A stretch of DNA of 32,471 nucleotides from contig CBDDTI010000435.1 in assembly GCA_965233585.1 (NCBI GenBank), forward strand, positions 1 to 32,471, in the 5' to 3' direction. Position numbers and translations under genes: made by a program. The stretch is from a bacterium. Its GTDB lineage: Bacteria > SAR324 > NAC60-12. The notes under the pieces were generated by a model. The model was not told the DNA's origin. It saw only the letters and a list, made by a program, of their open reading frames with translations, and made no database searches. Below are positions 1,502 to 25,664 of the stretch, one piece after another. Each line of letters begins with the position of its first letter. Within the stretch, counting starts at the first letter, position 1.

Positions 1502-2039
1502 ACGGATGACGGGAGCCTGTTTTTAGATGTTTTCGGCCCGAATTCATCTAAAAAAATCTAAATGCGTTCTAAATTCATCTAAATTCATCTAGATGCGTTC
1601 TCGTTGCAAGCAAAACGTCAACTGATTCAATCTAAAAGCATCTAAATGCACACCGATTTCTGGTGCGTGCACCAAAAGTTTGGTGCCTGCATTGCTGTGT
1701 CTAATGCTGGCATGAAAAATTTGGTGCGTGCACGAAAAGTTTGGTGCCTGCATTGCCTCGTCTAATGCTGGCATGAAAAGTTTGGTGCGTGCATGAAAAG
1801 TTTGGTGCCTGCATTGCTTTGTCTAATGCTGGCATGAAAAGTTTGGTGCGTGCATGAAAAGTTTGGTGCCTGCATTGCTCTGTCTAATGCAGGCATGAAA
1901 AAGTTGGTGCACGCACTAAAAATTTCATGCACGCATCAAAATTTTACTTGTCTGCATTACTTTTTCTGGTGCCGGGATCTCAATTTTGACGCTGGCGTGA
2001 AATTTTAGATCCAGGCACCAGAATGTCAGCGGTCCATAG
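1502..2039 (+). repeat. Left terminal inverted repeat (538 bp, outermost bases missing)
   Basis: 1502 ACGGATGACGGGAGC... to ...CAGCGGTCCATAG 2039 is the reverse complement of 21593-22191. Confidence 0.95.
1661..1904 (+). repeat. 61-bp tandem array inside the left TIR (4 units), built of 20/21/20-bp subunits each with TGCnnGCA
   Basis: TGGTGCGTGC at 1661, 1722, 1783, 1844; partial unit from 1905. Confidence 0.92.
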
Positions 2040-2420
2040 TTGAGTAAATTGGAGAAAAGAAGCAGAGCTTTTTTCTTTTTTACCATAACTGGTGTTGCAA
2101 TGTCGCAATGTTCTTCTTCATTCTGTGTAAATTTTCTTGCTGTAATGGTACCAGTGAACGAGCGATTTTTATCAATAATTTAATGCGATTTTTATCAATA
2201 ATTTAATCAATTGTGTTTTTGTTTTTAGCACAAAAAGGTTTTATATAAATTTGATTTCTCGAAAAAAGTTGTATGGTTCCTTGGTATTTTTTACCATGCA
2301 ATTTTAATTTTTTCCAAAAATAACTTTTGAACTGACCGCGATTTTTTCTGGTGTTTTCTAGATAATATTTTTGCGCAAAGCAGATGTTTCCTTCTTTTGT
2401 TCTTTTATAAATTCTTCCCA

Positions 2421-3553: not shown

Positions 3554-5146
3554 TTATTTAGGGTTTTGTATGGCTAGATTCATCATGATTTTTTCATTTG
3601 TTTCAAAATTAATCAATTCTCCGTCAAGTCTTTTTAACTGAAAATGCAACAAATCCAGTCGACTTGTATTACACTTTATGTATTCCAAATTTTCAAAATG
3701 CGTCGTCACATAATTGTCTTGTTCCTCGGCTCTATTAATTGGTATAACTTTTAATACAGGGTAAAACTCGTCTCCAATTACCGAGTGATTGACGAAATTG
3801 GCATAGCAGATCATCACTCCCGGATATAGATAGTGCGGATCTAGACGTTCGTCACTTATAAATTGATTACTTTCATCCGCCAAAACAATGTCATCATCTT
3901 GACTTATTCCTAGCAATAATCTTATTTCATGCGGCACTCTTATCCTTACTACCAAGGAGCGATTGAATTGATTGCCGACCCGTTTTACTTTAAAACGGTC
4001 TTTATGCGCGGAAATTTGAATGAGACTTTGTAAATCTTTGCTCATACCATTATACATGGCCTCGATTAATTCATCCGTTGTTTTGATAAACCTTTTCTCA
4101 ATGCAAAAGCAAAATCGCATTGTTTCAATCATTACCCTGATTTTCACAGGTGGAAATGTTTCTGTTGGGTCAGGATTTTGCATTGGCTGTTGCGATATAA
4201 ATTCTTTTTTCTCCGGTCCCATAACAATATATTCTTCTTTGATTCCCAAAATGTTTTTAAATTCGGGCGGTATCAGCACTTTTACCTCAGGTGATTTAAA
4301 TTCGGCATCGTACGTCGTCGGTCCGGTGTAAATTACTCGAAAAAACATATCGGCCGATTCTTTTGTTTTCTCCGTTTGCCCAAATTCAACAAAATTACGT
4401 ACTACGCTGTCTCTTCCGTCGTTTAAGCAATTTAATAAATAAGCAATTGTTTTCCGCTGATCAAGTTTGACCTCGATTTCTTGCTTGAACGGGTCTGTAC
4501 TTACTTTAATTTTCTTATCAAAAACGCTTAACGGAACGCTGTTAACACGATTTGGAAAGGAGATGTCGGCTAAGGCTATTTTAGCTCCTTCGTTTAAATA
4601 AATGGGATGGCTCAAATGTACCTCGAAATTGTTGTTTTTCTGCGCGGGTTTTATGTTGTCGCCCATTTTTGAGTCGACGCGAATGTGCTTTGTCAAATAT
4701 GACATCGCTCGTTTTGTTTTTCGCAAATGAAGTAAAACTAGACTCGGCTGACCCGATTTTAGTTTTAGAAGTTTGTCGGATGCGTCTAAAAACTCAATGC
4801 CCACTGATTTTATTGAAGTGTTTTGAATAGGATAATATCGTATGTTGTTTAAAGTATGGTAGAAATATTTCCGTTTTTTGCTTGAAGGCAAGTCGGCCAC
4901 GCATAAGATGTGAGAATTCTCGTTTGAGCTTGTAGACACAATGTTGGATTTAACCTGCACCACGTCAAAAACAAAATCTTGTTTCACGTTTAAATGCAGA
5001 CCAAAAGCTACAACCCCAACTTCCCAATCTCTTCTTTTGTTTAATTCTAAATTTTTCGGTAAAAAATTGTTAAAACGCGTTAGCGTGTTTACGTAACAAT
5101 CAGTGCTTGCGTTTGAAATGCAATATATAAGATGTCCTCCTTTCAT
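3554..5146 (-). CDS. Minor capsid protein (penton, PX-like); two tandem penton-like modules
   Basis: N-terminal SNAS..Y.NTLT.F...LP..LEL...WEVG and C-terminal ICYANFV.HSVIGD...PVLKVIP...YI......L....FQL...DGELI.F motifs typical of Polinton pentons; both motif sets appear twice (aa 1-147 and 148-530). Confidence 0.8.
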   Translation of the reverse strand: MKGGHLIYCISNASTDCYVNTLTRFNNFLPKNLELNKRRDWEVGVVAFGLHLNVKQDFVFDVVQVKSNIVSTSSNENSHILCVADLPSSKKRKYFYHTLNNIRYYPIQNTSIKSVGIEFLDASDKLLKLKSGQPSLVLLHLRKTKRAMSYLTKHIRVDSKMGDNIKPAQKNNNFEVHLSHPIYLNEGAKIALADISFPNRVNSVPLSVFDKKIKVSTDPFKQEIEVKLDQRKTIAYLLNCLNDGRDSVVRNFVEFGQTEKTKESADMFFRVIYTGPTTYDAEFKSPEVKVLIPPEFKNILGIKEEYIVMGPEKKEFISQQPMQNPDPTETFPPVKIRVMIETMRFCFCIEKRFIKTTDELIEAMYNGMSKDLQSLIQISAHKDRFKVKRVGNQFNRSLVVRIRVPHEIRLLLGISQDDDIVLADESNQFISDERLDPHYLYPGVMICYANFVNHSVIGDEFYPVLKVIPINRAEEQDNYVTTHFENLEYIKCNTSRLDLLHFQLKRLDGELINFETNEKIMMNLAIQNPK

Positions 5147-5151
5147 ACTTG

Positions 5152-6261
5152 TTACGCCTGATTAATAACGCTATCTTCCGCAATCCAGCTAAGGTTTTTA
5201 TAGCCTTTCCACTTCACCAACACCAACTTCTGCCCGGTTCTTTTATCTTTCTTCCTTCTCACAATTTTTTCAATGTGAAATAATTTCGGCGGCTTGGCCA
5301 GAGTCAGCTCATTAGCATAAAAATTTCCCTCCACCGTCTCGTCACCGTCCAGAGTTTCCAGCTCGTATGTAGGTATGGGTAATCGCGTAAACACCCGTTT
5401 GATCTTGTAAATTTCTTCAGTAAATTGCTTATTGTAACCTCTGTCAAATTGAGCTCTGTAGTTACTTATTCTGACCGTCTGGCCTTTCTTAAATTTAGGC
5501 GGTCGCCTCTTTATTTTCGCATAAGCCTCTTCTTGTTTCATTCGGACTTTGGGAGCGTTTTTTGCTTTTTCCGCATCAGCTGGACTCATACCGATCATTC
5601 TATGTACGCGCGAGTTATACGTCTTTACTAAAGATTGAAGCACGTGGATAAATCGATCCGTACCCCTAGATGTCATATATTTAAACATTAGACTTTTTAG
5701 AGATCTGTTAAATCTTTCCACAAACGGCGCGTGCACAAAGTTGTCGCTGTGTAAAAGAGTAATGCCTTTACGTCGACAGTAGTCTTTAAAAAATTTATTT
5801 TTGATCTCTAACCCTCTATCAGCTAGAATTTTTCGAGGCGGCTGGCCAGCCTTATTGACAATGGTTTTGAATCCTTGTAAAAAAACCAAAGCTGTCTTGT
5901 TTTTTATGGGTTCAACAAAGGCATATCTCGAAAAAATGTCGATCGCTGTCAGCAAGTAACGATAATTGTCATTCGCGTTTGCCATTTTCCCAATTTCAAC
6001 CAAGTCTATTTGGAATTGATATCTTTTGTAATAAACATAGGTTGGGTTCCTAGGTTTTGGAGCCTTAGGTTGTCGGTGCAGAGTATAGGTGTCCGACGCC
6101 TGCAGCCATTTCTTTATTTTATTTATGGGTATGGTCCCGTTAAAATGATTAAAAACGCGGTTCGGCGATGAAAAAGCAAAAGGCGAGCCGGGCGAAGTGT
6201 AAGCTTTTAAAAATTCGCGTTTAGTAATCATCCTCGTCGTCGTCGTTGTCGTCCTCAACAT
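5152..6261 (-). CDS. Retroviral-like (RVE) DDE integrase with C-terminal chromodomain
   Basis: FQIDL (D), ILADRG (D), VERFNRSLK (E); YTLH motif; chromodomain FHIEKIV...LVKWKGY...SWI; real start may be ATG 6231. Confidence 0.95.
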   Translation of the reverse strand: MLRTTTTTTRMITKREFLKAYTSPGSPFAFSSPNRVFNHFNGTIPINKIKKWLQASDTYTLHRQPKAPKPRNPTYVYYKRYQFQIDLVEIGKMANANDNYRYLLTAIDIFSRYAFVEPIKNKTALVFLQGFKTIVNKAGQPPRKILADRGLEIKNKFFKDYCRRKGITLLHSDNFVHAPFVERFNRSLKSLMFKYMTSRGTDRFIHVLQSLVKTYNSRVHRMIGMSPADAEKAKNAPKVRMKQEEAYAKIKRRPPKFKKGQTVRISNYRAQFDRGYNKQFTEEIYKIKRVFTRLPIPTYELETLDGDETVEGNFYANELTLAKPPKLFHIEKIVRRKKDKRTGQKLVLVKWKGYKNLSWIAEDSVINQA

Positions 6262-6649
6262 AAAACAGCGGTTTTTGTTTTGTTTTTCTTCTCTTACCGC
6301 TTCCTACCGCATGCGTGCTATTTTTTCTCTTGACCGGTCTCTTGGACGCCTGTGCAGGCCTACTCGCCTTACCAGCCAGTAAGATGTTTCTAGTCGCGGA
6401 TTTTAATCTCTTTTTCGCAGCGGCTCCAACTGCTTTGCCGTCCAAGGCTTCCAGTGCGGTGTCAATGGCCGCTCGTCCCGCCTCTTTTTTCAAATATCGT
6501 CCCGCGGATCTGACACCCTCGCTTCTCGCAATTTTACCGATTGTCTTTGCGGCGCCCTTCGCCACCGGAACCAACGACCGGAAAAGACTGCTAAAAATTG
6601 AACCTAATCCCGCCCCAGCTTGCACAGACGGACCACGGTGGTATCGCAT
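6221..6649 (-). CDS. Basic virion core/membrane-active protein (QxGxG plus amphipathic helix family of Polintons)
   Basis: VQAGAGLGSIFSSLFRSLVP N-terminus; K/R-rich body; acidic tail. Confidence 0.8.
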   Translation of the reverse strand: MRYHRGPSVQAGAGLGSIFSSLFRSLVPVAKGAAKTIGKIARSEGVRSAGRYLKKEAGRAAIDTALEALDGKAVGAAAKKRLKSATRNILLAGKASRPAQASKRPVKRKNSTHAVGSGKRRKTKQKPLFYVEDDNDDDEDDY

Positions 6650-6655
6650 ACTTTA

Positions 6656-7375
6656 TCAATTTTCAATTTTTTTGACGCACCTGCTTAAGGCCATCGGACT
6701 AACGCCTAATTGCTCGGCTAAACGCGATAAGCTTTTCGGCTTTTCCTGATCAACCCTACTCCGTTGTTCTCTTAAAAAGACGTGCGCGCATGCCGCGATT
6801 AGTGTTTTTGGCGAAAAAACAAACTTTTTTTCGTGTTGCTTTACTTTCTCTCTAATTTCCTTCAACTCCTTGTAGCTTAGATTTAAAGAGTGAAGAAAAT
6901 ATTCGCACATTAAATTTGGGCTGTAGAAAGAGTCGTCGTTTTTAAGATATTGCCACACTTTGTCCTGCTTGACGCCGGTTATGGCACATAAATCTTTCAT
7001 CGGTCGCGGCACCCCCGACTCTATAAGCGCGGTGTAGATGCACATTACCGCTAAACTTTCTAAACAAACACCTCTTTTCCCTCTTTTCCCGCTAGCGTCC
7101 CATTTTTTGGCGATGACGCGTTTTAAATCCGCGCATTCGATATTGCACTTATAGCATACCCTTTGCATTGTCTCATCAGTAAAATTGTTTTTGTCGCAAG
7201 TCACATCCTCGCTCATTTTCTCCGTTTTAATCGATTCGAGCCGATAGTCATACGGGGCATATAGCCGATCATGCATCACGAGCCCGCAATCTGTACATAC
7301 TTCACACCCGTTTGAAAAATCATCCACAATATTGTAATGAGAACAAGTCCTGTTGAAATTATGAAAACGAGGCAT
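6656..7375 (-). CDS. TFIIB-like general transcription factor
   Basis: Zn ribbon CSHYNIVDDFSNGCEVCTDCGLVM; cyclin-fold repeat 1 AVMCIYTALIESGVPRPMKDLCAITGV; repeat 2 SPKTLIAACAHV...SLSRLAEQLGVSPMALSRCVKKI. Confidence 0.9.
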   Translation of the reverse strand: MPRFHNFNRTCSHYNIVDDFSNGCEVCTDCGLVMHDRLYAPYDYRLESIKTEKMSEDVTCDKNNFTDETMQRVCYKCNIECADLKRVIAKKWDASGKRGKRGVCLESLAVMCIYTALIESGVPRPMKDLCAITGVKQDKVWQYLKNDDSFYSPNLMCEYFLHSLNLSYKELKEIREKVKQHEKKFVFSPKTLIAACAHVFLREQRSRVDQEKPKSLSRLAEQLGVSPMALSRCVKKIEN

Positions 7376-7418
7376 GTTTATTTCTCCGCACGCGCTGCAA
7401 AACTGAAACGCGAATCAA

Positions 7419-7979
7419 CTATCGATCGCTTTTATATTGTTTCAAAAAATCTATAATAAAGTCCAAACTATGTTTGACCGCATCTTCGGACTTGGCCCCG
7501 ATGATTACCATCTTGCCTGTGGAAAATATTAAAACCGTGTTGGCTTCAAAAGTCACAAACATGCCTGGGAAACGTTCGGGATTGAAGCGTACTTTTTTCA
7601 CGTAGCTCTCCTTCCGAAGTTTATCAAAAACGTCCGGCAGCGGTATCTCAAAGCCCGCACGAAAGGAACAAGTTAAATTGTTTATTTCCCATGTTTGCAC
7701 AAAGAAACGATTGCTGATAATGTCCGTCAGCAGACTTAACGATATTTTTATATCCGCTCGCGATGGCACTTTGGTAATATTGACATGATATGATTTGTTG
7801 TTTCCGCGGGTCTTGAAAATGGTGTAGACGTATTGTTTCCTCACTACCGTAAAATTACTAAAAACTTTTTGTGACACATCTTTATTTAAGGATAACGGCC
7901 CCTCATCCGTAAGAATAATTGTGCAGCTAAGCTTTATATTTGTCACAGTGACGTGCTCCGTGTTGTCTAGAAATGTCAT
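7419..7979 (-). CDS. TATA-binding protein (TBP)-like factor
   Basis: C-terminal repeat INNLTCSF..GFEIPL...FNPERFPGM....NTVLIFSTGKMVIIGAKSED is a clear TBP signature; N-terminal repeat diverged (VTNIKLS...NFTVV...YTIF...VNIT). Confidence 0.92.
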   Translation of the reverse strand: MTFLDNTEHVTVTNIKLSCTIILTDEGPLSLNKDVSQKVFSNFTVVRKQYVYTIFKTRGNNKSYHVNITKVPSRADIKISLSLLTDIISNRFFVQTWEINNLTCSFRAGFEIPLPDVFDKLRKESYVKKVRFNPERFPGMFVTFEANTVLIFSTGKMVIIGAKSEDAVKHSLDFIIDFLKQYKSDR

Positions 7980-9313
7980 CGTTGATTAATGGCGGTGTCG
8001 GCGGTTTAAATGTGGATTTCAATGAATTGCAGGGTGATAGTTTGAATGCGCATGCGACCCCCCTCGAAGACACGGATTTAATATCAGGTCGTACTGTGCT
8101 ATATAGTAGCGTGACTCCCGTCGAAGATTTAGAAGATGTTACGTTTTCAATTCCTTCCGACCCCGAATGCGCTTTTGTTTTAAATCAGACGAGGCTAGAG
8201 GGTTACTTTGTGGTAAAGACCGACAGCGGCGAGGGTGTAACAGACACTGACACGCCAACAATTACTAACCATTATTGCGCCGCATTATTCTCGCAAATTG
8301 AAGTCCACCTTAACGGAACTCAAATATGTGATTTGAGTGCCCCTCTTTCTTATTCGTACAAACACCACATTGACTTTCTCCTGTCCTATAACAATAATGT
8401 ATTAACAAATGTGGGACGGTCCGAAGGCTTTTGCCGAACGCACCACGACAAATGCTTTGACAATATTACCACGACCGGTAAAATGTGCCAATGCATCGCG
8501 GAGAATCGTGCGAAAATAATAAACGACAAAAAAGTTTATTTTAGCTCAACTTTGCCCGCAGATATTTTTTACACCGACAAATATTTACCTCCGAATGTGG
8601 AAATCACTGTTGTATTACGCAGGTTCAACCCGTGTTTCGGGCTGCTTCAAGATAATCCGAACAAAGTCTATCGCATTCGTTTAAAGGAATTAAAACTTCG
8701 CATGAGAAAAGTGTTACCGTGCGAGCGTGTGCGAAACAGGCTAAACGCCGAACTGCTAAAAGGTCGACCATTTTTTCTGCCTTTTAAAGACACGCAGATG
8801 AAGCATTATCTGATCCCGTCTGGTTCCCTTAGTTTCTCTGCAAATCACATCAACAATAGCGAGATGTTGCCGCAACAAATTATTTTCTGCATGCTTCGAA
8901 GCGACCTTTTTGCCAAGGGACCGAGCGATCAATTTCCCTTTAAATTTAAACACGCCGATTTAGCATCCGTCATTTTAAAAAACAATGGAAGACCCCTCTT
9001 GCCTAGACCTATAGAATGCAAGATACTTACAGGCGATTATATGGAATTGTACGACCATTTTCAAAGCAACGTCGGCGGCAGAAATTGTATTTCACCCCAA
9101 GCTTTTACAGAGGGTCAGATGTTTCTCGCGTTCGACCTGACTCCGGATAAATGCCTATCCTTTCACAATCACGTCGGAGTGCCCGGAAATTTAGAACTAG
9201 ACTTGACTTTTAACACCCCCACCAGAACCCCCTTAACCCTGATTTCTTACGCTATTTATAATGCTGCCATTTCCATCGACAGCAACCTTCAGGTTACCAA
9301 AATAAAATATTAA
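7973..9313 (+). CDS. Major capsid protein paralogue 1 (double jelly-roll, PY-like)
   Basis: LFSQIEVHLNG, DIF..DKYLPP.V, LPQQIIF, FLAFDLTPD, GNLELDLTF motifs; alignable along its length with 9383-10717. Confidence 0.88.
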   Translation: MSSLINGGVGGLNVDFNELQGDSLNAHATPLEDTDLISGRTVLYSSVTPVEDLEDVTFSIPSDPECAFVLNQTRLEGYFVVKTDSGEGVTDTDTPTITNHYCAALFSQIEVHLNGTQICDLSAPLSYSYKHHIDFLLSYNNNVLTNVGRSEGFCRTHHDKCFDNITTTGKMCQCIAENRAKIINDKKVYFSSTLPADIFYTDKYLPPNVEITVVLRRFNPCFGLLQDNPNKVYRIRLKELKLRMRKVLPCERVRNRLNAELLKGRPFFLPFKDTQMKHYLIPSGSLSFSANHINNSEMLPQQIIFCMLRSDLFAKGPSDQFPFKFKHADLASVILKNNGRPLLPRPIECKILTGDYMELYDHFQSNVGGRNCISPQAFTEGQMFLAFDLTPDKCLSFHNHVGVPGNLELDLTFNTPTRTPLTLISYAIYNAAISIDSNLQVTKIKY

Positions 9314-9382
9314 AATTGCACACCGCCGACTCCCTCTTTTTAAGAAGAACAGAAAACTACAGACTAGCATGCATTTTCGACA

Positions 9383-10717
9383 ATGACTGAAAAGGGTGGC
9401 ATCGGAGGTCTAGGGTTCGAGCAGGACGATTTGACAGAACAAGCTCTTGATCTGCACGCGCCGCTCGGGGTCGATATAAGCCTTGAAAAAGGCAATGATG
9501 TGGTCTACAACAGCGTTTCCAGCGTTTCAAACACCGGACCGATCGAATTCATCATCCCGCGAGACGAAGAGTGTTCCATCATTCTGGATCAGACTAGATT
9601 AATAGGGCATTTCGTTGTCAAGACAGCAAAGGATGAAAATGTCGGACCCGACGATCGAGTCTTTCTGGCCAATAATTTCGCGAGCAATCTATTTAGCGCG
9701 GTTGAAATCTACATTAACGGTACTCAAGTCTGCGACTTGAGCACGGCAAATTCCTACCCTTTCAAAAACTTTATCCAGACCGAGTTGTCGTTTGATAGAG
9801 AGGCCAAACAGAGTCAGCTAAGAGCCGAAGGTTATTTTGAAGAAAAAGAAAACGATATTGGAGCTTGCGAGCCCGGTATAAATCAGCGTTTAATACACCG
9901 TCGAAATCTTATACTTCACGGCAAAAAAGTTTATTTCTGCTCTCGATTGGGGGCGGATATTATGTATACGGATAAGTATATGCCACCGAATGTCGACATC
10001 AAGATTAAGCTTATTAGAAACAGTCCGACATTCGGTATTCTTCACGCCGAAGATGACAAATCTTTTAAAATCGTTTTAAAGGATTTAAAGTTGAAAATGA
10101 GAAAAGTTTTGCCGGTCGAGCAGCAGAGAAAGCATTTTAGGATGAAAATGTCTCAACAGCCCTGCTATATACCCTTTAAGCTGAGTCAGTTGAAGGTTTT
10201 TGTGATTCCAGCCGGCGTCACATCGTACACCGTTACCAATATTGCCTCACAAATACTGCCCAAACAAGTTATTTTCACCCTAATTCACAACCAAGCCTTG
10301 ACGCACGATAGCAAATTCAACCCGTTCGACTTTCAACACTTTGATCTTAATTATTTCAATCTTATTAAAAACGGACAATGCGTCTTCCCAAAAGCTTTTC
10401 AGCCGGATTTTGATGATGATAACTACATGGACCTGTACAGACACATGTACGACAGCACGGGTTTCGGCATTTCAAATAGTTCTTGCGACATTTCGCCCGC
10501 GGTTTTTAAGAGAGGAAGATGTTTTCTAACTGCCGATTTGACCCCCGATCGCTGCAACAGTTTTCACATTCACCCCGACGAAAAAGGCAAGTTGGACTTG
10601 GAATTAGGCTTTAAAACAGCCAAGCCTCACCCCATCTACCTGCTAGCCTACAGCATTTTTAATTCCGGAATTAAAATAGAGGAGAACGGCCAAGTTGTTA
10701 GGGCCGAAGAGCGATAA
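9383..10717 (+). CDS. Major capsid protein paralogue 2 (double jelly-roll, PY-like)
   Basis: GPIEFII, LFSAVEIYING, NSYPFK.FI, LPKQVI, NPFDFQHFDL, DLTPD, LELGF motifs. Confidence 0.9.
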   Translation: MTEKGGIGGLGFEQDDLTEQALDLHAPLGVDISLEKGNDVVYNSVSSVSNTGPIEFIIPRDEECSIILDQTRLIGHFVVKTAKDENVGPDDRVFLANNFASNLFSAVEIYINGTQVCDLSTANSYPFKNFIQTELSFDREAKQSQLRAEGYFEEKENDIGACEPGINQRLIHRRNLILHGKKVYFCSRLGADIMYTDKYMPPNVDIKIKLIRNSPTFGILHAEDDKSFKIVLKDLKLKMRKVLPVEQQRKHFRMKMSQQPCYIPFKLSQLKVFVIPAGVTSYTVTNIASQILPKQVIFTLIHNQALTHDSKFNPFDFQHFDLNYFNLIKNGQCVFPKAFQPDFDDDNYMDLYRHMYDSTGFGISNSSCDISPAVFKRGRCFLTADLTPDRCNSFHIHPDEKGKLDLELGFKTAKPHPIYLLAYSIFNSGIKIEENGQVVRAEER

Positions 10718-11202
10718 TGGCCGGTTTGAGCAACGTATTTCTAGATCGGTTTTTATCCCCACTTTGCAAGAATTTCATCGGCACCTTTGCAGTCGACACG
10801 TTACCCTCAAACTTGTGGAACACTAGCTGTTGCGCCATCGTCAATCTTTCGGTTTCAAGCCATCCCGGCAGTCATTTCATCGCCTTTTTTATTAATAAGC
10901 AAAACTATTTGTATTATTTCGACAGCTATGCACTACCCGTGCCCGCCTATAATCACCACCTCATCCATTTTTTGAAAAAATGGGAAAATTGCGGCAGAAT
11001 AAGACATGTCCTGGACCGATCGATTCAAGCTTTCGATTCTTTGTTTTGCGGGTGGTATGCTGCCGCATTTTGCATGTTTGTCAATGCATACGCAAACGTG
11101 AAGCCGCGACACTTTTGCACTTTTTTTAATCCCAATAATTTACGCGAAAATGAAAAACGCGTCAAACATTTAGTTAATTGTTTGCAAGTCAAGCTTTATT
11201 AG
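10717..11202 (+). CDS. Adenain-like (Ulp1/C5-type) cysteine maturation protease
   Basis: IVN....HPGSHF (His), YFDSY (Asp), IQ...S.FCGWY (Gln, Cys); TAATG overlap with the MCP2 stop. Confidence 0.93.
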   Translation: MAGLSNVFLDRFLSPLCKNFIGTFAVDTLPSNLWNTSCCAIVNLSVSSHPGSHFIAFFINKQNYLYYFDSYALPVPAYNHHLIHFLKKWENCGRIRHVLDRSIQAFDSLFCGWYAAAFCMFVNAYANVKPRHFCTFFNPNNLRENEKRVKHLVNCLQVKLY

Positions 11203-11325: not shown

Positions 11326-12538
11326 TCACTTGCTGCCGAGTTTGACATTGACGGGGAAATCCAGACCTTGACACAGCTCCACCATACCCTCGGTAAATTC
11401 ATCCAACTTGTGCAGAGGAAAATTCATCCTAATTATCTTGGTGCTGTGGCTTTTGTTGTTGTCGTTATACTGCGGGAAAAAAGATTTTTTACGCATTTTT
11501 CCGCTCAATTTTTTTCTATTTACATTTTTATTTCGCCTTACCTGCTCTTTAGAGACGTAAAATACCGGCCACACGCTAAGGCCCGCAGCACGCTGGATAT
11601 GCCTAACGCCGCTAACTCCAATTACCATCCTAGGGTTGGATGCAATCACTTTGCTCATCGGGGCAAAAGGCAAGCTCACCGATCGCGATGACACCTCCTT
11701 GTTTTTAAAAGCCTCAATAAACTTTTTCATGGTGGCTGGATTAGGGTAGATGTACTGTTGAGCAAAACAGTGCAGAAAAGTTTTTTAATTAAAAATACGC
11801 TGAGCTGATTTGAACTGTTTTACTCACCCCGTCGTCTCCAATAAAATATTGTTCGCGATGGCTGTGGCTTTCTAGCCACTTGGAAAAGTTTACCTCCGCG
11901 GTTTTTACGCGCTCGTTAACATCCCATTTGCAGGGTCGAAACAACTCCTCTTGCTTTTTCCTTGTCAAATTAATCCCATCCACCTTGGACGAAACCGGCT
12001 CCGGCTCGACATAATTTTTCCTTTTTGAATCGGGTAATTTCTTTTTGCCTGAATCGGACCTTGGTCTTTTTTTCGCGCAAAACGGCTTTCCTTGATCCTC
12101 CATCTCCGGTTCTTCAATATCAGTCGGAGCATCGTCATCATCATCGTCATCATCGTCATCCTCGTTATCATCTTGGGCGGCATCAGACTCAACATCGTTA
12201 TCATCGTTATCAGAGCCGTCTTGCATGTTCTCTGAGCCGGATTCTTCAGACTCGTCATCGCTTGAATTCTCGTTGTCTCTCATGTCCTCATCCTTCTCCA
12301 TGTCTGAGTCGGAATCTTCTAATTGCTTATGTCCTTTGTTCGCAGATGACGAACGGGATTTGGCAAGTTTACTACTTTTTTGCTCTTTGGTGTAAACTTT
12401 TGACGTTTTTTCAACGTGGCTTTTTTCGAACGGTGTCTTTTTCGCGACCTTTTTATGCGCAGACTTCCCCTTTTTTTTGTACAAGATCGTCTTGCTGCCT
12501 TTGCCATTGCTTTCAGATGATGTAGCCAGTTTACCCAT
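11326..12538 (-). CDS. Spliced 379-aa protein (exons 12538-11828 and 11754-11326): basic/acidic N-terminus, compact C-terminal domain (possibly PC4-like ssDNA-binding)
   Basis: Intron 11755-11827 (73 nt; GTGAGT...TTTTGCTCAACAG on the - strand) joins FIGDDG|YIYPNPATMKKF in frame. The PC4-like fold is a tentative inference. Confidence 0.72.
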
Positions 12539-15172: not shown

Positions 15173-18100
15173 ATGAACAGCGACTCTGTAAACGTGCCCG
15201 AGTATTTATTAAAGTGTCGAAGTGTTTTATGGAACAGAAAATACGATGAAAAGAATTTTCTATATTGTGTCATAGGACATCTTTGGCCGGAAACGGCAAA
15301 CATCAGACGATGCAAAAAAATTCCAAAGGAGTATGAAAGTAAATTTAACTTGCAGGGTTTAACCTTTCCCCTGCAGTTTAGCCAGATTAGCAAGTTTGTT
15401 CGAATTAACAAGCACCTACCGTTACGTATAAGAGTTCTTTTTGAAGGTGAACATCAACTGAGTGTTTTAGACGTTTTCTCCAATAGATCTGGCGAGAAAA
15501 ATAAGAACAAAAATACGCTAAATTTGCTAATGATTAAAAGTGATCGTCAAATTTCATCGGCCAATAAAGACAGCATTGACGTAAATGGCATTTCCAACGT
15601 AAAAGACCTTGAGCATCAGCACCATTTTTTCACTATTGCTAATTTAAATGGCTTTCTGAACAACCGAAAATCTGCTATGACCAAAGGAAGACGGCATAGA
15701 AGTCAGTTTTATTTTTGTGACAGCTGTTTAAGAGATTTTCGTTCGCGCAAGAAACAAAAATTACACGAAAAAATCTGTCAAATGGATAAACAAGCGGTGA
15801 TTTATCCAGAAAAGGGCAGTGTCTTGAATTTCGATAAGCAAAGAAATGCTTTTAAAGCACCTGTAGTGGGATTTGCTGATTTTGAGTGTTTTATGGAAAA
15901 GTCAGAGCAAGAAGCAAAAACATGTAAAACATGCGGAAAAGCGTGGGTGACATGCGAATGTCAAGTGTCGGGATGCGCTGAGCTAAGTAAACATCGAGCT
16001 TGCGGCTATTCAATTTGTTTTGTCGATTCGGAAAACGAAGTATTTTATCAAGAAACGTACAGTGGAAAAGACGCTGTGGAAAATTTTCTATCAAAGCTGG
16101 ATTATTTCGAAGAATTAGTGGAAGCGCGAAAGCAACGGTTCAAGAACACATCTCAAATTATAGCGAGCAAACATGATTGGGAAGAGTACCACGCCGCCAC
16201 GCTATGTCATATTTGCAAAAAAGATTTTGATTCAGGCTCGCGATTATATAAAAAAGTGGTTGATCATGATCACGTCACCGGAAACATTGTTCAAGCGGCG
16301 CATTCTATTTGCAATCTGCAACGACAGGGCCCATTTAGAACACCTATATACTTTCACAACGCCAAGGGGTAAGTACAGACTTTTTTAATATTTATAATCC
16401 TTGACTTGAGGGAAAGTCATTTTAAATTTTTTTAATTTTAAGATATGACATAAATCTACTAGTAGAAAAATTGGACAAAGAGGCTAATCTGATGGCGAGT
16501 AACCAAGAAAAGTTTAGGACAATCACTATTGGAAAATTTCAAATTAGGGATTCTCTAGAGCACGTGCCATCCAGTCTTGATGCGCTCATGACCGATTTAT
16601 GCAAGGATGAGACGTTTACCTTTCCGATTCTCAAACAATTCGAGCCTTACAAGAGGCTGTGGACGCGACAAAAGGCGAAAGGTTTAAAATTATTGAAAAG
16701 AAAAGGAGTATATCCGTATGAATACTTTTCATCATATGAGTCGATTAAAAACAGTCAATTTCCGCCAAAAGACGCTTTCTACTCGAGATTGAGCGAAGCC
16801 CACATCTCAACCGAAGATCATAAGCACGGCTATGAAGTGTTCAAGTTTTTTAATTGTAAAAATATGGACGACTACATGAAGTTATATTGCGGACTGGACG
16901 TGATTTTGCTGGCTGAGATTTTTGTAAAGTATCGAGAAATGGTGATGAAGCACTTTGAGTTGGATCCCATCTACTATTTAGGCATACCTGGCTTGTCATT
17001 TGACATCATGCTTAAAATGTTTCAAAATGAAGAAAGAAAAGACGAAGAAGAGATTAGTCCTGATTTAATGTCGAAACCACCGGGCTCATTGGACTTGTTT
17101 CACGATCCGGCAATGGAACAGTTTTTTACACGCGGCATTAGAGGAGGGCAGAGTTTTATAGCTACCAGACAAGCGACGGGTCAGGCCGATCCTAAAGCGA
17201 GCGGCGAGCATTTACTATATGTAGATGGTAATATTTTTTATTAAACGTCAAAGAAAAAAAGATTGATTAAAATTACGATACATTTTCAGCTAACAATCTT
17301 TACGGCAGCATGGAAACACGCATGCTGCCGGTGGGTAATTTTAAGTGGGTGCCAAAAAAGGAGATAAAAACATGGACGGACAAGGACATTTTGAATTTGC
17401 CTTCGCAAAGCAGGATTGGCTATGCTTTTGAAGTGGATTTGCACTATCCAAAAAAATATCATGAGGTAAATAATTGTTTCTGCTAAACACCAACTGCTAG
17501 AAAAATTTTTTTTATTTATTTTGCAGAGAGATGATCAATTTCCTTTGGCTCCTTACACTGACACAATAAACTTTGATGATCTGTCACCGTTTAACAAACA
17601 ACTTTTGAAGAAGCACTGTCCGACTGATTACAAAAACAAACGTTACAGTTCGCGAAAGCTTCTTGCCACATTCTACCCGCGACGTAAATATGTCGTCTTG
17701 TTAGATAATCTAAAGTATTATTTGAGGCGAGGGCTGAAGCTTACAAAAATCAGACGAGCGGTCAAGTTTGAGCAAAAAGACTTTTTAAAAAACTTTATCA
17801 CAAAAATTACAAAATTAAGGTCGGAGGCAAAAACTGATTTTGAATTACGTCTCTTCAAGTTGTTTGCCAATTCCACATTTGGCAAATTTATAGGTAAAAT
17901 AAAGTAATGGCTCCCTTTTTTCACAATAAAATGTTTAATTTTTTTCAGAGAACGCGCGAAACTACATCGAAATCGTATTGTGCCACAATGAAAAGAAGCT
18001 GAGAAAGACTTGCATGGGTCAGCATGTTTCGAATTTGAAAGTCATAAACGAAAACCTTGTGGCTGTCATGAAAAAACCGGCCGTTATTGAAATGAAGAAA

Positions 18101-18736
18101 CCGTTGGCGGTGGGGTTTGCGATTTTGGAACTATCCAAACTCTACATGTATCGATCGTACGACAAATTTAGACGTTACTTTGGAACGGAGAATCTAAGGT
18201 TGTGCTTTTCGGACACAGACTCGTTTCTGTTTCAAGTAAAATGTCAAAATTTAGTTAAAAAGTTAAAAAGAATGGAACACATGTTCGACTTCTCAAAATA
18301 CGATAAAGATCACGAGTTGTTTGACGATAGCAGAGCCAATCATTTGTTTTACTTCAAAGACGAGCTAAAAGGAAAGGCCGCAATTACTGAATTTATCGGC
18401 TTAAGGCCAAAATGTTACAGCATGACGGTCAAGGATTTGAAAACCCGAGGAGCCAGCGTAAAGAAAATTTGTAAGGGCCTTAAAAAAACTAGTATTAAAA
18501 ATCACTTGACCTTTGAGGATTATAAAAAATGTTTAAACGAATCAACATTGGTATATAAGCCTCTTGTTAATATTAAATCAAAGAATCACAGAATGTCAAC
18601 AACCTACCAACGGAAAATTGCTCTATCTGCCATGGACACCAAACGTTATGTGCTTTCTTGCGGAAAGTGCACTTTGGCCTTAGGAAGTTGTCATGTAAAA
18701 AAATGTTATAAACATGAATGTAAGGAAATCAAATAA
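15173..18736 (+). CDS. polB: Protein-primed family B DNA polymerase, 5 exons (15173-16368, 16443-17227, 17290-17465, 17527-17893, 17949-18736; 1103 aa)
   Basis: ExoI FADFEC; endonuclease VII-like insert CHIC...DHDHVTG....AHSICNL; splicing restores FHNAKGYD (ExoII), YVDANNLYG (A) and KLFANSTFGKFIEN (B); FSDTDS (C), RKGVYPYEY and GLRPKCYS present; all introns GT-AG. Confidence 0.95.
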
Positions 18737-18798: not shown

Positions 18799-19485
18799 AT
18801 GGACGGATTTGATTTGCGCTTTAAGCTTCCATCTAACTTACTCGCGGTAGGTCCCACTTCTTGCGGAAAAACGTCATGGCTAAAAAAACTGGTTGAAGAT
18901 AGGGCCGTAATGTGCTCGCCCGTTCCGGAATGTATGATTCTATTTTACAAAGAATTCCAACCGACCTATGCTGATATGGAGCGGGGGATGAACGATGACG
19001 CGCGTGAAAAGAGGTTTTGCAAATTTTCATCCATGCCAGAATCGGTTGAAGAGATGAAAGATATACTGGAAACGTTCCCTAGAGCTCTTCCGAAAATTGT
19101 GGTATTTGACGATTTTCTTGATGAAGTAGGATCGGTGCTAAAGCACTTTTTCACGGTTTTAACGCATCATTATAATTGTTTGACAGTTTTTTTGTGTCAG
19201 AACATGTTTAGCGCCAAAAGCGAACTCAGAATGCTCAGCATCAACTCGCAGTACATGATTTTATTCAACAATCCCAGAGACCGTAGCGCCGTCTCGCACC
19301 TGGCTAAACAGGTGTATCCGGGTAACGTGCATCGGCTAAACGATGCATATGCGGCAGCAACCGGTGAAAGACCTTATGGCTATTTACTGCTGGATTTTCA
19401 TCAGCAGCAAAATAATTTGGTTCGATTAAGAAGTCATATTTTTCCGGACGAACAGCCTACAAGGGCGTACAACGTACGCACGTAA
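18799..19485 (+). CDS. A32/FtsK-like DNA packaging ATPase
   Basis: Walker A GPTSCGKT, Walker B IVVFDD, HHYN, QN.F, NSQYMILFNNPRD, PYGYLLLD; ATG 18799 preferred over the TTG at 18742. Confidence 0.93.
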   Translation: MDGFDLRFKLPSNLLAVGPTSCGKTSWLKKLVEDRAVMCSPVPECMILFYKEFQPTYADMERGMNDDAREKRFCKFSSMPESVEEMKDILETFPRALPKIVVFDDFLDEVGSVLKHFFTVLTHHYNCLTVFLCQNMFSAKSELRMLSINSQYMILFNNPRDRSAVSHLAKQVYPGNVHRLNDAYAAATGERPYGYLLLDFHQQQNNLVRLRSHIFPDEQPTRAYNVRT

Positions 19486-19515: not shown

Positions 19516-19869
19516 ATGACGAAATCACTAGAAAAAGCAGTTTCTCTTTTAAACGCGGTAAAACATTTAAAAGACCGTGACTGTTCCAATTTCATTGGAT
19601 GTTTAAACGAGGAAGGCATCTATACTCTGTGTCGAATAATACACTACGTTTTGAACGGAGAGCTTACTTTTAGTAAGCGCGTTCGAGCAAGGTTAAGATC
19701 GAAAGTCGGGTGTCATCTGCCTGACTTTAAAAAACTGTCAAATTACCCGCGCAATAGTCGAGATATTTGCAAAAAGAAGCGAATACTGCAAAGAGGAGGC
19801 ATAATCGGGGTTCTGACGGCTATTGCTAGCGCTGTAATACCTCTAATCACTCAACTTATTACAAAATGA
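19516..19869 (+). CDS. Conserved small Polinton virion protein (QxGG site followed by an amphipathic C-terminal helix)
   Basis: KKKRILQRGGIIGVLTAIASAVIPLITQL; typical position after the ATPase. Confidence 0.8.
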   Translation: MTKSLEKAVSLLNAVKHLKDRDCSNFIGCLNEEGIYTLCRIIHYVLNGELTFSKRVRARLRSKVGCHLPDFKKLSNYPRNSRDICKKKRILQRGGIIGVLTAIASAVIPLITQLITK

Positions 19870-21440
19870 AAAAGAAACAGGAAGAGGACGTATCCACCAT
19901 GTTTTTGGTGCCGAAACGAATTTACCTAGCCGTGAGGGAGGTCATTAGCGAAGATGACAAGCTTAATCAATTAGATCAATTGAATAAAGGTACAAATTAT
20001 ATAGAAGACGCTATTCAATTTAAGCAGCAGAAATCCTACAAGACACAACCGGAAGATTTGAAGAAAACGGTTTCAACTTTGGTAAATACGTTCAATAACA
20101 TTGAGCAGCCAGCGCAGATCGAAATAAACTCCTTGCCTGCTCGAAACAGCGAAGAACTCTCGCAAGATGGTTTTACTTCTGTCCCTCCATCAAGCGGAAG
20201 CCAGCTCGATGGTCCTAATTTCATCTTTCCACCTGTAAATCCAACGGAAGCGGAAAACGTAAAACATCAAAAGGAAATAACGCTTTCGCATCAGGAAATT
20301 GCATCGGAAAATTTACTTAATAACGAGCCTCAGCCTCAACATTGCGAACCATCAAACATCGACTTGAAAAAGAAAAACAACGTTCCGCCAAAACTTAGAT
20401 GCCCGTTTTGTAACTATGCAACCTACTCAAGGGTATATTTTCTTATGGAACATTTGCGTAATAAACACAACTACCGCGCTAGTTTGGAAGAAGAAAGATC
20501 AGCAAGAGAAACATTGGAAAAGGCCAAAATTGAGCGCAATTCAAACAAAACCAAGGAACCTTTGCCATCTTTTCGCGGCAAAAGAAAAAACATTAGTGTC
20601 GAGGATGAAAGCGGCATTCCATTAAAGCGGCGAAAACGTGATTGTTTAACTAAAAATTACGATGAAAATGAACCACTTTCGAAATTAAGACGCAATGTAA
20701 AAAATAAAAAATTAAATGCAAAACCAACAAAGAAAAAGGTAAAAAAGTCAACTTTTGATGAAAACGAGCCACTTTCTAAATTAAGACGTCAAGGTGTAAA
20801 AACGAAGAAAGAAAAGAAAGAAAAGTCAACTTTTGATGAAAACGAGCCACTTTCTAAATTAAGACGTCAAGGTGTAAAAACGAAGAAAGAAAAGAAAGAA
20901 TCAAGAAAATTAACTGTTGATGAAATACCTAAACAAGATGGGAAGCTTTTTAAATTACGAAAAAACCCGTTTTACATGAAGCCTTATAAAAAATACAATA
21001 CGAAGAAAGAAAAGAAAGAATTAAAAAAGTTGACTGTTGATGAAATACTTAAACAGGATGGGAAGCTTTTTAAATTACGAAAAAACCCGTTTTACAAGAA
21101 GCCTTGTGAAAATTACGATGAAAATGAACCACTTTCGAAATTAAGACGCAATGTAAAAAATAAAAAAATAAATGCAAAACCGACAAAGAGAAAGTTAAAA
21201 GAGTCGACTTTTGATGAAAACGAGCCACTTTCTAAATTAAGACATCGAGGTGTAAAAACGAAGAAAGAAAAGAAAGAGTTAAAAAAGTTGACTGATGATG
21301 AAATACAGCTTTTTAAATTACGAAAAAACCCATTTTACAAGAAGCCTTATAAAAATTACGATGAAAATGAACCACTTTCAAAATTAAGACGCAATAGTAA
21401 AAAAAAAACCCGTTTTACAAGAAGCCATTTCCTAAATTGA
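19866..21440 (+). CDS. Lys-rich repetitive protein with one C2H2 finger
   Basis: ATGA overlap; MFLVP motif; CPFC...HLRNKH; six DENEPLSKLR and three LFKLRKNPFY repeats. Confidence 0.75.
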   Translation: MKKKQEEDVSTMFLVPKRIYLAVREVISEDDKLNQLDQLNKGTNYIEDAIQFKQQKSYKTQPEDLKKTVSTLVNTFNNIEQPAQIEINSLPARNSEELSQDGFTSVPPSSGSQLDGPNFIFPPVNPTEAENVKHQKEITLSHQEIASENLLNNEPQPQHCEPSNIDLKKKNNVPPKLRCPFCNYATYSRVYFLMEHLRNKHNYRASLEEERSARETLEKAKIERNSNKTKEPLPSFRGKRKNISVEDESGIPLKRRKRDCLTKNYDENEPLSKLRRNVKNKKLNAKPTKKKVKKSTFDENEPLSKLRRQGVKTKKEKKEKSTFDENEPLSKLRRQGVKTKKEKKESRKLTVDEIPKQDGKLFKLRKNPFYMKPYKKYNTKKEKKELKKLTVDEILKQDGKLFKLRKNPFYKKPCENYDENEPLSKLRRNVKNKKINAKPTKRKLKESTFDENEPLSKLRHRGVKTKKEKKELKKLTDDEIQLFKLRKNPFYKKPYKNYDENEPLSKLRRNSKKKTRFTRSHFLN

Positions 21441-21592
21441 TTGTTAGAAAGTTTTAAGAAAAACAAGATAAAAAGATAAAAATAAAATTTTCATATTTTT
21501 GCAATTTCCTTAACTATTTAGTAACAGCATTCCGTTGAAGTTTATAGCAAAAAAGAAAAGAAAAACCCGAGTTATTGAGCACGTTTCTTCGT

Positions 21593-22204
21593 CTATGGAC
21601 CGCTGACATTCTGGTGCCTGGATCTAAAATTTCACGCCAGCGTCAAAATTGAGATCCCGGCACCAGAAAAAGTAATGCAGACAAGTAAAATTTTGATGCA
21701 TGCATGAAATTTTTAGTGCGTGCACCAACTTTTTCATGCCTGCATTAGACAGAGCAATGCAGGCACCAAACTTTTCATGCACGCACCAAACTTCTCATGC
21801 CAGCATTAGACAAAGCAATGCAGGCACCAGATTTTTCGTGCACGCGCCAAACTTTTCATGCCAGCATTAGACGGAGCAATGCAGGCACCAAACTTTTCAT
21901 GCACGCACCAAATTTCTCATGCCGGCATTAGACGGAGCAATGCAGGCACCAAACTTTTGGTGCACGCACCAAATTTCTCATGCCAGCATTAGACACAGCA
22001 ATGCACGCACCAAACTTTTGGTGCACGCACCAGAAATCGGTGTGCATTCAGATGCTTTTAGATTGAATCAGTTGACGTTTTGCTTGCAACGAGAACGCAT
22101 CTAGATGAATTTAGATGAATTTAGAACGCATTTAGATTTTTTTAGATGAATTCGGGCCGAAAACATCTAAAAACACGCTCCCGTCATCCGTTTTTACTAT
22201 TACT
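21593..22204 (-). repeat. Right terminal inverted repeat (5 x 61-bp units at 21728-22032)
   Basis: Reverse complement of 1502-2039 plus one extra 61-bp unit and up to 13 extra terminal bases (TTTTACTATTACT). Confidence 0.95.
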
Positions 22205-24340: not shown

Positions 24341-25060
24341 TCAATTTTCAATTTTTTTGACGCACCTGCTCAAGGCCATCGGACTAAGGCCTAATTGCTC
24401 GGCTAAACGCGATAAGCTTTTCGGCTTTTCCTGATCAACCCTATTCCGTTGTTCTCTTAAAAAGACGTGGGTGCATGCCGCGATTAGTGTTTTTGGCGAA
24501 AAAACAAACTTTTTTTCGTGTTGCTTAACTTTCTCTCTAATTTCCTTCAACTCCTTGTAGCTTAGATTTAAAGAGTGATGAAAATATTCGCACATTAAAT
24601 TCGGGCTGTAGAAAGAGTCGTCGTTTTTTAGATATTGCCACACTTTGTCCTGCTTGACGCCGGTTATGCGACATAAATCTTTCATCGGCCGCGGCACCCC
24701 CGACTCTATAAGCGCGGTGTAGATGCACATTACCGCTAAACTTTCTAAACAAACTCCTCTTTTCCCTCTTTTCCCGCTAGCGTTCCATTTTTTGGCAATG
24801 GCGCGTTTTAAATCCGCGCATTCGATATTGCACTTATAGCATACCCTCTGCATTGTCTCATCGGTAAAATTGTTTTTGTCGCAAGTCACATACTCGCTCA
24901 TTTTCTCCGCTTTCATCGACTCGAGCCGATAGTCGTACGGAGCATAAATCCGATCATGCATCACGAGCCCACAATCTGTACATACTTCACACCCGTTTGA
25001 AAAATCATCCACAATATTGTAATGAGAACAAGTCCTGTTGAAATTTAGAAAACGAGGCAT
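24341..25060 (-). CDS. TFIIB-like factor, second copy, intact ORF
   Basis: 239 aa, colinear with 6656-7375; Zn ligands kept. Confidence 0.88.
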   Translation of the reverse strand: MPRFLNFNRTCSHYNIVDDFSNGCEVCTDCGLVMHDRIYAPYDYRLESMKAEKMSEYVTCDKNNFTDETMQRVCYKCNIECADLKRAIAKKWNASGKRGKRGVCLESLAVMCIYTALIESGVPRPMKDLCRITGVKQDKVWQYLKNDDSFYSPNLMCEYFHHSLNLSYKELKEIREKVKQHEKKFVFSPKTLIAACTHVFLREQRNRVDQEKPKSLSRLAEQLGLSPMALSRCVKKIEN

Positions 25061-25106: not shown

Positions 25107-25664
25107 TCAATCGCTCTTATATCGTTTTAAAAAATCTATAATAAAGTCCAGACTATGTTTGGCCGCATCTTCGGACTTGGCCCCGATGATTACCATCTTG
25201 CCTGTGGAAAAAATTAAAACCGTGTTGGCTTCAAAAGACACAAACATGCCCGGGAAATGTTCGGGATTGAAGCGTATTTTTTTCACGTAGCTCTCTTTTC
25301 GAAGTTTATCAAAAACGTCCGGCAGCAGTATCTCAAAGCCGGCACGAAAAGAACAAATTAAATTGTTTATTTCCCATGTTTTCACAGAGAAACGATTGAT
25401 GATAATGTCCGTCAGCAGACTTAACGATATTTCTATATCCGCTCGCGATGGCACTTTGGTAATATTGACATGATATGATTTGTCGTTTCTACGAGTCTTG
25501 AAAATGGTGTAGACATATTGTTTCCTCACTACCGTGAAATTACTAAAAACTTTTTGTGACACATCTTTATTTAAGGATAACGGCCCCTCATCAGCAAGAA
25601 TAATTGTGCAGCTAAGCTTTATATTTGTCACAGTGACGTGCTCCGTGTTGTCTAGAAATGTCAT
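25107..25664 (-). CDS. TBP-like factor, second copy, intact ORF
   Basis: 185 aa, colinear with 7419-7979; FNPEHFPG and LIFSTGK. Confidence 0.88.
   Translation of the reverse strand: MTFLDNTEHVTVTNIKLSCTIILADEGPLSLNKDVSQKVFSNFTVVRKQYVYTIFKTRRNDKSYHVNITKVPSRADIEISLSLLTDIIINRFSVKTWEINNLICSFRAGFEILLPDVFDKLRKESYVKKIRFNPEHFPGMFVSFEANTVLIFSTGKMVIIGAKSEDAAKHSLDFIIDFLKRYKSD

Follow-up and report, generated by a model that had tools for sequence, protein, structure and literature searches.

The 32,471 nt stretch of DNA analysed here (the window) carries a complete 20.7 kb Polinton, lying between terminal inverted repeats at 1502–22191, that encodes a TBP-like protein and, directly after it, a TFIIB-like protein. 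Judged from sequence, the pair represents a conserved and selected version of a known viral strategy, accompanied by a specific promoter candidate, the box TAT[C/G/T]TAA[A/G]. [quoted passage not shown] The initial annotation of this DNA had proposed a private TBP–TFIIB pair that steers host Pol II to the structural genes; this core idea appears supported, having come through every refutation test that could be run, and the box found before virion genes adds to that support.

Inverted repeats, a protein-primed DNA polymerase, an integrase and indirectly identified capsid, protease and ATPase genes mark the element as a Polinton. The double-jelly-roll capsid, the protease and the packaging ATPase were identified through family profiles and relatives; the capsid proteins of the window have no direct Pfam or PDB match, and the capsid of one relative (L100) matches PF21738 at 1e-5, under the cut-off. 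The ends of the inverted repeats are the same in other copies, and the right end adjoins a second, partial copy. Membership in the Nucleocytoviricota was ruled out for a 20.7 kb element with this gene set. The TBP and TFIIB ORFs are adjacent, on the same strand and unbroken, as first annotated, and they sit between a head-to-head capsid gene, the start of which overlaps the start of the TBP-like gene, and the core, integrase and penton genes. The same arrangement had been described for both copies of the element. Both pairs are indeed open; the second copy is degraded, with its capsid, core, integrase, penton and protease frames broken. A regex scan for the RNA polymerase catalytic motif was negative in the window and in 8 long relatives, in agreement with the initial annotation, and no other transcription factor families were found among the scanned ORFs.

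The TBP-like protein contains the motifs NPERFPG, LIFSTGK and GAKS. PF00352 matches it with an E-value of 1e-16 over residues 98–182 only, the C-terminal half of the protein. Its AlphaFold2 model (predicted local distance difference test, pLDDT, of 91.9) superposes on complete TBP chains with a Z of 16.6 and a root mean square deviation of 2.2–2.5 Å over 163–168 residues, the next unrelated fold following at Z 7.8. Identity to solved cellular TBPs is 19–25 %. The four aromatic residues that contact DNA appear to be kept among 41 aligned TBPs (F43, as F34/Y7; F55 and F137, each 41/41; F152, 40/41), as is the central Asn of either lobe (N14 and N101, 41/41), where the C-terminal lobe was mapped from alignments and the N-terminal lobe from residue pattern and predicted strands.

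The two lobes had been described as unequal, the N-terminal repeat strongly diverged and the TFIIB-contacting C-terminal repeat conserved. The N-terminal lobe does differ from that of cellular TBP, and helix H1 is missing in the model; it nevertheless holds 11 of the 16 columns that are invariant in the clade, and its ratio of nonsynonymous to synonymous substitutions (dN/dS) is 0.09–0.44. This lobe appears to be still under selection, far from cellular TBP and not decaying. The C-terminal stirrup proved only partly conserved. Glu135, two residues before Phe137, is kept in 35/41 proteins; its neighbours, Asn133 and mostly Lys/Arg136, are unlike those of cellular C-terminal stirrups. The counterpart of Glu135 in plant TBP, E146, is the main TFIIB contact according to the available text of PMC10005294.

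The zinc ribbon of the TFIIB-like protein matches PF08271 at 1e-4, below the Pfam cut-off, and the residues C11, H13, C27 and C30 are present in 34/34 aligned proteins, the first knuckle being CxH. Human TFIIB is matched at 2e-6 by phmmer with the single sequence and at 5e-18 with a profile, which reaches about 1e-4 against Brf1/Brf2. In the AlphaFold2 model (pLDDT 87.7) the 30 best Foldseek rows are transcription-initiation complexes or TFIIB/TFB/Brf entries, with cyclins listed only from rank 42, and matches in BFVD are giant-virus TFIIBs at 11–18 % identity. Two cyclin folds are supported by the model and the profile, and relative L100 passes the PF00382 cut-off. Conservation extends to the C-terminal helix-turn-helix (S226 in 34/34, R232 in 33/34). 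The absence of a B-reader, first noticed in this one protein, extends to the relatives: the motif (EWR or WRxF) is missing in 34/34 and 98/98 aligned sequences. From the ribbon to the core marker there are 83 residues in the window protein and 53–101 in the clade (median 68), versus 127 in human TFIIB. The gene product, which lacks the B-reader and B-linker, is best described as TFIIB-like rather than as a canonical TFIIB.

Evidence on the origin of the pair is mixed. Archaeal TBPs score best against the TBP by sequence, human TFIIB scores best against the TFIIB, and the nearest Atlas clusters of the TBP are rich in Nucleocytoviricota. Many of these proteins are already annotated automatically as TBP in public databases. 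Outside the pair-bearing clade, one Polinton cut by a contig end carries a TBP-like gene at another position (L092:5992–6288, − strand; PF00352, 7e-15), possibly a second capture of TBP.

Within the assembly from which the window was taken, 41 TBP loci occur on 35 contigs, with identities from 100 % to about 37 %; 39/41 TBP frames are full length, and TFIIB directly follows TBP at 41/41 loci. A scan of JGI metagenomes returned 68 loci, many of them redundant (34 at an 80 % cut). TFIIB follows TBP in 61/68 of these, and in the remaining 7 the contig stops no more than 141 nt from the TBP ORF; likewise, a head-to-head capsid gene is present in 59/68, the other 9 starting within 120 nt of the TBP frame. 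A packaging-ATPase scan for relatives yielded 1 locus, with the pair present, while IMG/VR scans with TBP alignments and a search with the capsid of a pair-less element found no relative. In one rearranged element that carries the pair (L100), the capsid gene is not head-to-head with TBP, and TATATA and TCAGT precede TBP.

By the Nei–Gojobori method, applied to 14 hand-picked pairs, dN/dS for TBP is 0.17–0.30 in 11/14 pairs; two pairs of very similar sequences give 0.08 and 0, and one pair is saturated. For TFIIB it is 0.09–0.30 in 13/14 pairs, and the last pair, which has five changes, gives 0.39. When a neighbour-joining tree was built from a single gene, the integrase (45 sequences), the 30 pair-bearing elements grouped as one clade (91/100 bootstraps), across which TBP identities reach down to about 27 % with the position fixed. 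Since the pair is kept at its loci, dN/dS is low and the integrases are monophyletic, the pair is read as a long-standing component that one Polinton clade has retained. These results also bear on the question, raised with the first prediction, of whether the genes might be recent host retrocopies absent from related Polintons; neither is the case.

A model of the TBP–TFIIB complex gave an ipSAE of 0.61, versus 0.00 for the best control. This lies above a mark that 116 of 157 solved complexes attain, as do 2 of 215 mismatched pairs. The modelled interface is the usual C-terminal stirrup, with runs agreeing in at least 57 % of contacts and a partner pLDDT of at least 79. TBP and TFIIB are a textbook pair, and the pass, which may stem from memorisation by the predictor, is taken as likeness rather than binding.

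The candidate late box was derived by reading upstream alignments of 33 elements (9 from this assembly and 24 metagenomic), in which TAT[G/T]TAA[A/G] was first seen before the penton, ATPase and o117 genes. A pooled k-mer scan over all genes was rejected as a source, being dominated by coding sequence. Boxes were counted from −140 to −25 of start codons picked by script. The box precedes the capsid gene in 20/30 elements (1.3 expected), penton in 13/30 (1.4 expected), the packaging ATPase in 9/19 (0.7 expected), o117 in 6/17 (0.6 expected) and core in 4/33 (1.5 expected). There is no enrichment before TBP (3/33, 1.5 expected), and no box was found in this interval before TFIIB (0/32) or integrase (0/32). 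Position 4 is occupied by C or G in 30 of the 49 box sites. A C lies three bases before the box at 37/49 sites and at 13/13 of those before penton; at the capsid sites this base is also fixed by TBP codons. It could be a contact for the TFIIB helix-turn-helix resembling the B recognition element.

Because the capsid and TBP genes are head-to-head, the capsid promoter is expected to lie inside the TBP gene. TAT[C/G/T]TAA is found there, antisense, at one site near the TBP start in 32/45 sequences. The TBP leucine at this site is encoded by TTA in 31/32 cases, compared with 13–75 % at 14 other leucine columns, which points to a constraint at the DNA level. Capsid paralogue 1 has the box in 5/5 subfamilies with two capsid genes. 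For 17 loci outside the box-defining alignments, which had already been displayed in the survey of 45 sequences, the box falls within the first 90 nt of TBP in 13/17, versus 1/17 for a 90 nt control downstream. Across 17 whole elements, 48 of 185 box matches lie before an ORF start, versus 12.1 expected. Polintons with no TBP or TFIIB in the DNA covered (13 contigs) have the box in 1/28 capsid, penton or ATPase regions and in 0/8 capsid genes. This control set does not include L098, a truncated element that belongs to the pair clade and also lacks the box.

Several points weigh against the box as the signal read by the pair. It was defined post hoc, with C at position 4 added after the capsid site had been seen, and the elements are related, so the box statistics are overstated. 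The remaining 137 of the 185 matches in whole elements are away from ORF starts. No box precedes the protease gene (0/28), just as none precedes integrase. In the window copy, the exact box is found only before capsid gene 1, with none before the ATPase, penton or o117 genes. Spacing differs as well, the capsid box lying 84–137 nt from the start codon and the other boxes mostly 35–56 nt. L100 has the pair, and the 140 nt next to its capsid gene contain no exact box; in this element, TATTTAAG lies about 45 nt before the core gene. In the C82/C30 group, TATTAAAA stands at the capsid site instead of the box. The pair-less controls are partial contigs, several near-identical, and mostly of a distant clade, so that the box may instead be characteristic of the clade, with another factor as its reader. 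Finally, binding of DNA by the pair, recruitment of polymerase and the division into early and late phases are proposals.

A canonical TATA and an initiator are often present before TBP itself, where TATAWAW occurs in 10/33 elements (1.2 expected) and TYAGT in 13/33 (1.1 expected). TATAWAW is also present at −58 to −88 before TFIIB in 7/9 copies from this assembly. The codons at the TBP end were considered as a TATA box for TFIIB and set aside, being found only in copies from this assembly (pooled, 2/32 at −60 to −25). Integrase codons account in part for an excess of TATAWAW before penton (11/30), which is not counted as support. L071 (C304), an unrelated pair-less Polinton type in the same assembly, has a canonical TATA 27–30 nt before five virion genes.

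The folds, conservation, selection, monophyly and box distribution are directly supported. Upon these a sequence of events can be proposed, in which host TFIID would read the canonical TATA and initiator before the viral TBP gene, giving TBP and TFIIB early. The two proteins, as modelled, would associate by way of the usual C-terminal stirrup, in which the contact residues are changed. The viral TBP, with its remodelled N-terminal lobe, would then bind the box before the capsid, penton, ATPase and o117 genes, and the zinc ribbon of TFIIB would dock host Pol II. With no B-reader, the choice of start site would probably be set by distance from the box. Host TBP tolerates C or G at the fourth TATA position badly. 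Because 30/49 boxes carry one of these bases, the virion genes may be silent without the viral pair. A fuller version is put forward tentatively and may well prove wrong: that this widespread clade of animal Polintons runs a two-gene early-to-late cascade, in which an orthogonal pair would read a box unusable by host TBP and recruit host Pol II without a B-reader. Dozens of integrated copies would in this way hold their capsid genes silent as long as the pair is off.

The strongest alternative, though an unlikely one, is that the pair generally boosts or replaces host TBP and TFIIB at every promoter of the element, for instance where a cell contains little TBP, the box being read by a host factor or a different viral one. 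Ordinary TATA binding would be possible for a protein in which the four DNA-contacting aromatics and both central Asn appear kept; marine copies have canonical TATAAAA before the penton and TFIIB genes, and the box may be a clade trait. A general role is at odds with a box that so often carries a base poorly tolerated by host TBP, and with its distribution, neither enriched before TBP nor present before TFIIB. Nor did the scanned ORFs offer another transcription factor family.

It is very improbable that the two proteins are decoys that titrate Pol II, TFIIA, NC2 or Mot1, in host shut-off or element silencing. A TFIIB that lacks the B-reader and B-linker (83 versus 127 residues in human) could form a dead-end complex; a decoy, however, needs neither a partner gene that is always kept with it nor a matching box conserved at synonymous sites, and the conserved C-terminal helix-turn-helix also argues against this role.

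Slightly less probable again is recruitment of a different polymerase, either host Pol III in the manner of Brf or that of a co-infecting giant virus, as in virophages. Brf1 and Brf2 do match the TFIIB model, and the Nucleocytoviricota-rich Atlas clusters nearest to the TBP would suit the second variant; the profile favours human TFIIB over Brf1/Brf2 by many orders of magnitude (5e-18 versus about 1e-4), and the gene structure of the element argues for Pol II. The polymerase gene is split by short GT–AG introns (16369–16442, 17228–17289 and 17894–17948, with further ones likely), inside catalytic motifs; two positions are common to 5/5 subfamilies tested and a third was found in 3/5. Such introns would point to transcription by host Pol II in the nucleus. 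AATAAA occurs near several gene ends of the element, an observation with no chance control. The predicted introns gave no joint in contigs of 3 of 4 runs, a result uninformative on expression. In freshwater relatives the polymerase gene is broken at other positions, and in L100 and L082 it looks unbroken.

Neutral host-derived cargo is refuted by a dN/dS of about 0.2, a fixed position in one clade across TBP identities down to about 27 %, and the 19–25 % identity to solved cellular TBPs.

Table 1. Features of the window, with positions, strand and basis of assignment
Feature	Position	Strand	Basis or remark
Left terminal inverted repeat	1502..2048	.	Arms 93–96 % complementary
Probable penton (minor capsid protein)	3554..5146	-	Conserved in the expected cassette place; putative identity, no Pfam match
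Retroviral-type integrase with chromodomain	5152..6261	-	PF00665, 4e-10; PF00385, 2e-4, under cut-off
Basic core-like protein	6221..6649	-	Conserved cassette position; putative identity from composition and a motif
TFIIB-like gene, 239 aa, with zinc ribbon, two cyclin folds and a short linker lacking B-reader and B-linker	6656..7375	-	phmmer, profile, model
One-mismatch box variant inside TFIIB, ~130 nt before core gene	6771..6778	-	Weak; may reflect protein coding
TBP-like gene, 186 aa, two-lobed saddle	7419..7979	-	Pfam, AlphaFold2 model, fold comparison
Canonical TATAAAA in last TBP codons, 61 nt before TFIIB start	7430..7436	-	Putative role
Candidate late box TATTTAAG, antisense within the TBP coding sequence and 90 nt before capsid gene 1	7883..7890	+	Putative function
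Major capsid protein paralogue 1	7973..9313	+	Family profile matches PF21738 double-jelly-roll protein, 3e-15
One-mismatch box variant TTTTTAAG, 46 nt before capsid gene 2	9337..9344	+	Weaker; putative function
Major capsid protein paralogue 2	9383..10717	+	As for paralogue 1
Adenain-like maturation protease	10717..11202	+	Relatives match PF00770
Protein-primed DNA polymerase B, split by introns	15173..18736	+	PF03175, over cut-off
Packaging ATPase	18799..19485	+	P-loop, weak Pfam match; conserved across the clade
o117, small conserved gene after ATPase, probably a virion protein	19516..19869	+	Putative role
Right terminal inverted repeat	21584..22191	.	Arms 93–96 % complementary
TFIIB-like gene, second copy	24341..25060	-	95 % aa identity to first copy
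TBP-like gene, second copy	25107..25664	-	92 % aa identity to first copy

The window has further features outside the pair and its candidate targets. An acidic ORF and the ORF next to it (11326–12538, − strand), with a GT...AG stretch between them, may be exons of one gene and have no family match. A 524 aa ORF at 19866–21440 contains a zinc-finger-like stretch and lysine-rich repeats. A 138 nt tandem repeat occupies the left flank (1–690), and 61 nt repeats lie inside the terminal inverted repeats (1661–1936). A search of the window for tRNA and tmRNA genes was negative. Two tandem capsid paralogues occur in five subfamilies of the assembly, and one capsid gene in the C82/C30 group and freshwater relatives.

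Besides three large contigs (2.5 Mb), the assembly contains 744 smaller ones; pair-bearing elements occur on 35 contigs. Filed as a prokaryote genome, it seems to be mostly eukaryotic host DNA. Two short TTAGG arrays and the TCAGT initiator, which is arthropod-like, are weak hints on the host.

To our knowledge, how virion genes are switched on in integrated Polintons has not been established. The pair and its 8-base box offer an answer that can be tested without virus, with two small proteins. If the proposal is true, a small DNA virus has reached the herpesvirus solution, its own TBP and an altered TATA box, with a plain TBP–TFIIB pair. The pair would then form a private pre-initiation module of minimal size, in convergence with the TATT system of herpesviruses. 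Nature would also have provided a test of Pol II initiation in which the B-reader is missing, and the module might yield an orthogonal promoter system and serve as a compact transcription tool.

The element resembles Polintons, Mavericks and adintoviruses in its inverted repeats, protein-primed polymerase, integrase, ATPase, protease and capsid, as these are described in the available text of PMC8502044. Intact vertebrate Mavericks are described as intronless in the accessible part of PMC8097293, whereas the polymerase gene here has introns. Starrett et al. (2021; PMC8502044) label a TBP-like gene of a related virus in their Fig. 5 legend; their text (both versions) and one supplementary file contain no TFIIB, and the text has no pair and no promoter box. 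TBP or TFIIB terms are absent from the available text of PMC11131425, PMC10748475, PMC12166617, PMC10120064 and PMC8097293. This literature suggests that the pair and box are unreported in Polintons, a claim on which the Starrett figure and the other supplements could bear.

Compared with cellular TBP–TFIIB (PDB 1VOL, 1C9B and 1AIS), the viral pair has the same folds, the same stirrup interface in the model and the stirrup Glu; it differs in an N-terminal lobe modelled without helix H1, the missing B-reader/B-linker and the CxH first zinc knuckle. Among viruses, TBP and TFIIB genes had initially been regarded as typical of large viruses with their own RNA polymerase, a group to which they are not confined in view of CpV-BQ1 (Chrysochromulina parva virus BQ1). 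This phycodnavirus, like the Polinton, has no RNA polymerase and encodes both factors, and redirection of host Pol II has been proposed for it; it has 193 genes, with VLTF3, TFIIS and capping enzymes, and its TBP and TFIIB genes lie apart (available text of PMC12085832). The Polinton is a 20 kb integrating element with one adjacent pair and a candidate target box. Ariadnaviruses keep TFIIB without a polymerase, according to the accessible part of bioRxiv 10.64898/2026.08.29.747986. In poxviruses, VITF-3 and VETF/Rap94 are stage-specific viral TBP/TFIIB pairs that serve the viral RNA polymerase in the cytoplasm (available text of PMC12917281). These are structurally expanded; chain 7amv_K aligns with the Polinton TBP at Z 7.3, versus Z 16 for cellular TBP.

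The closest functional parallel is the late transcription of beta- and gammaherpesviruses, in which the complex containing ORF24/BcRF1/UL87 uses a TATTWAA box (PMC6541308, in its available text). That sequence includes TATTTAA, one form of the Polinton box. The complex comprises six proteins and includes a TBP mimic, for which direct binding to Pol II is described (PMC7498053, likewise), and a viral TFIIB is not mentioned in the available text of either paper. The Polinton has instead a bare TBP core of 165–190 aa, a viral TFIIB-like gene, and a box that also allows C or G at position 4. In common, the two systems would have a viral TBP-like protein, a modified TATA box before structural genes and use of host Pol II. 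By analogy, this suggests that the Polinton pair works like the herpesvirus late complex without being a member of it.

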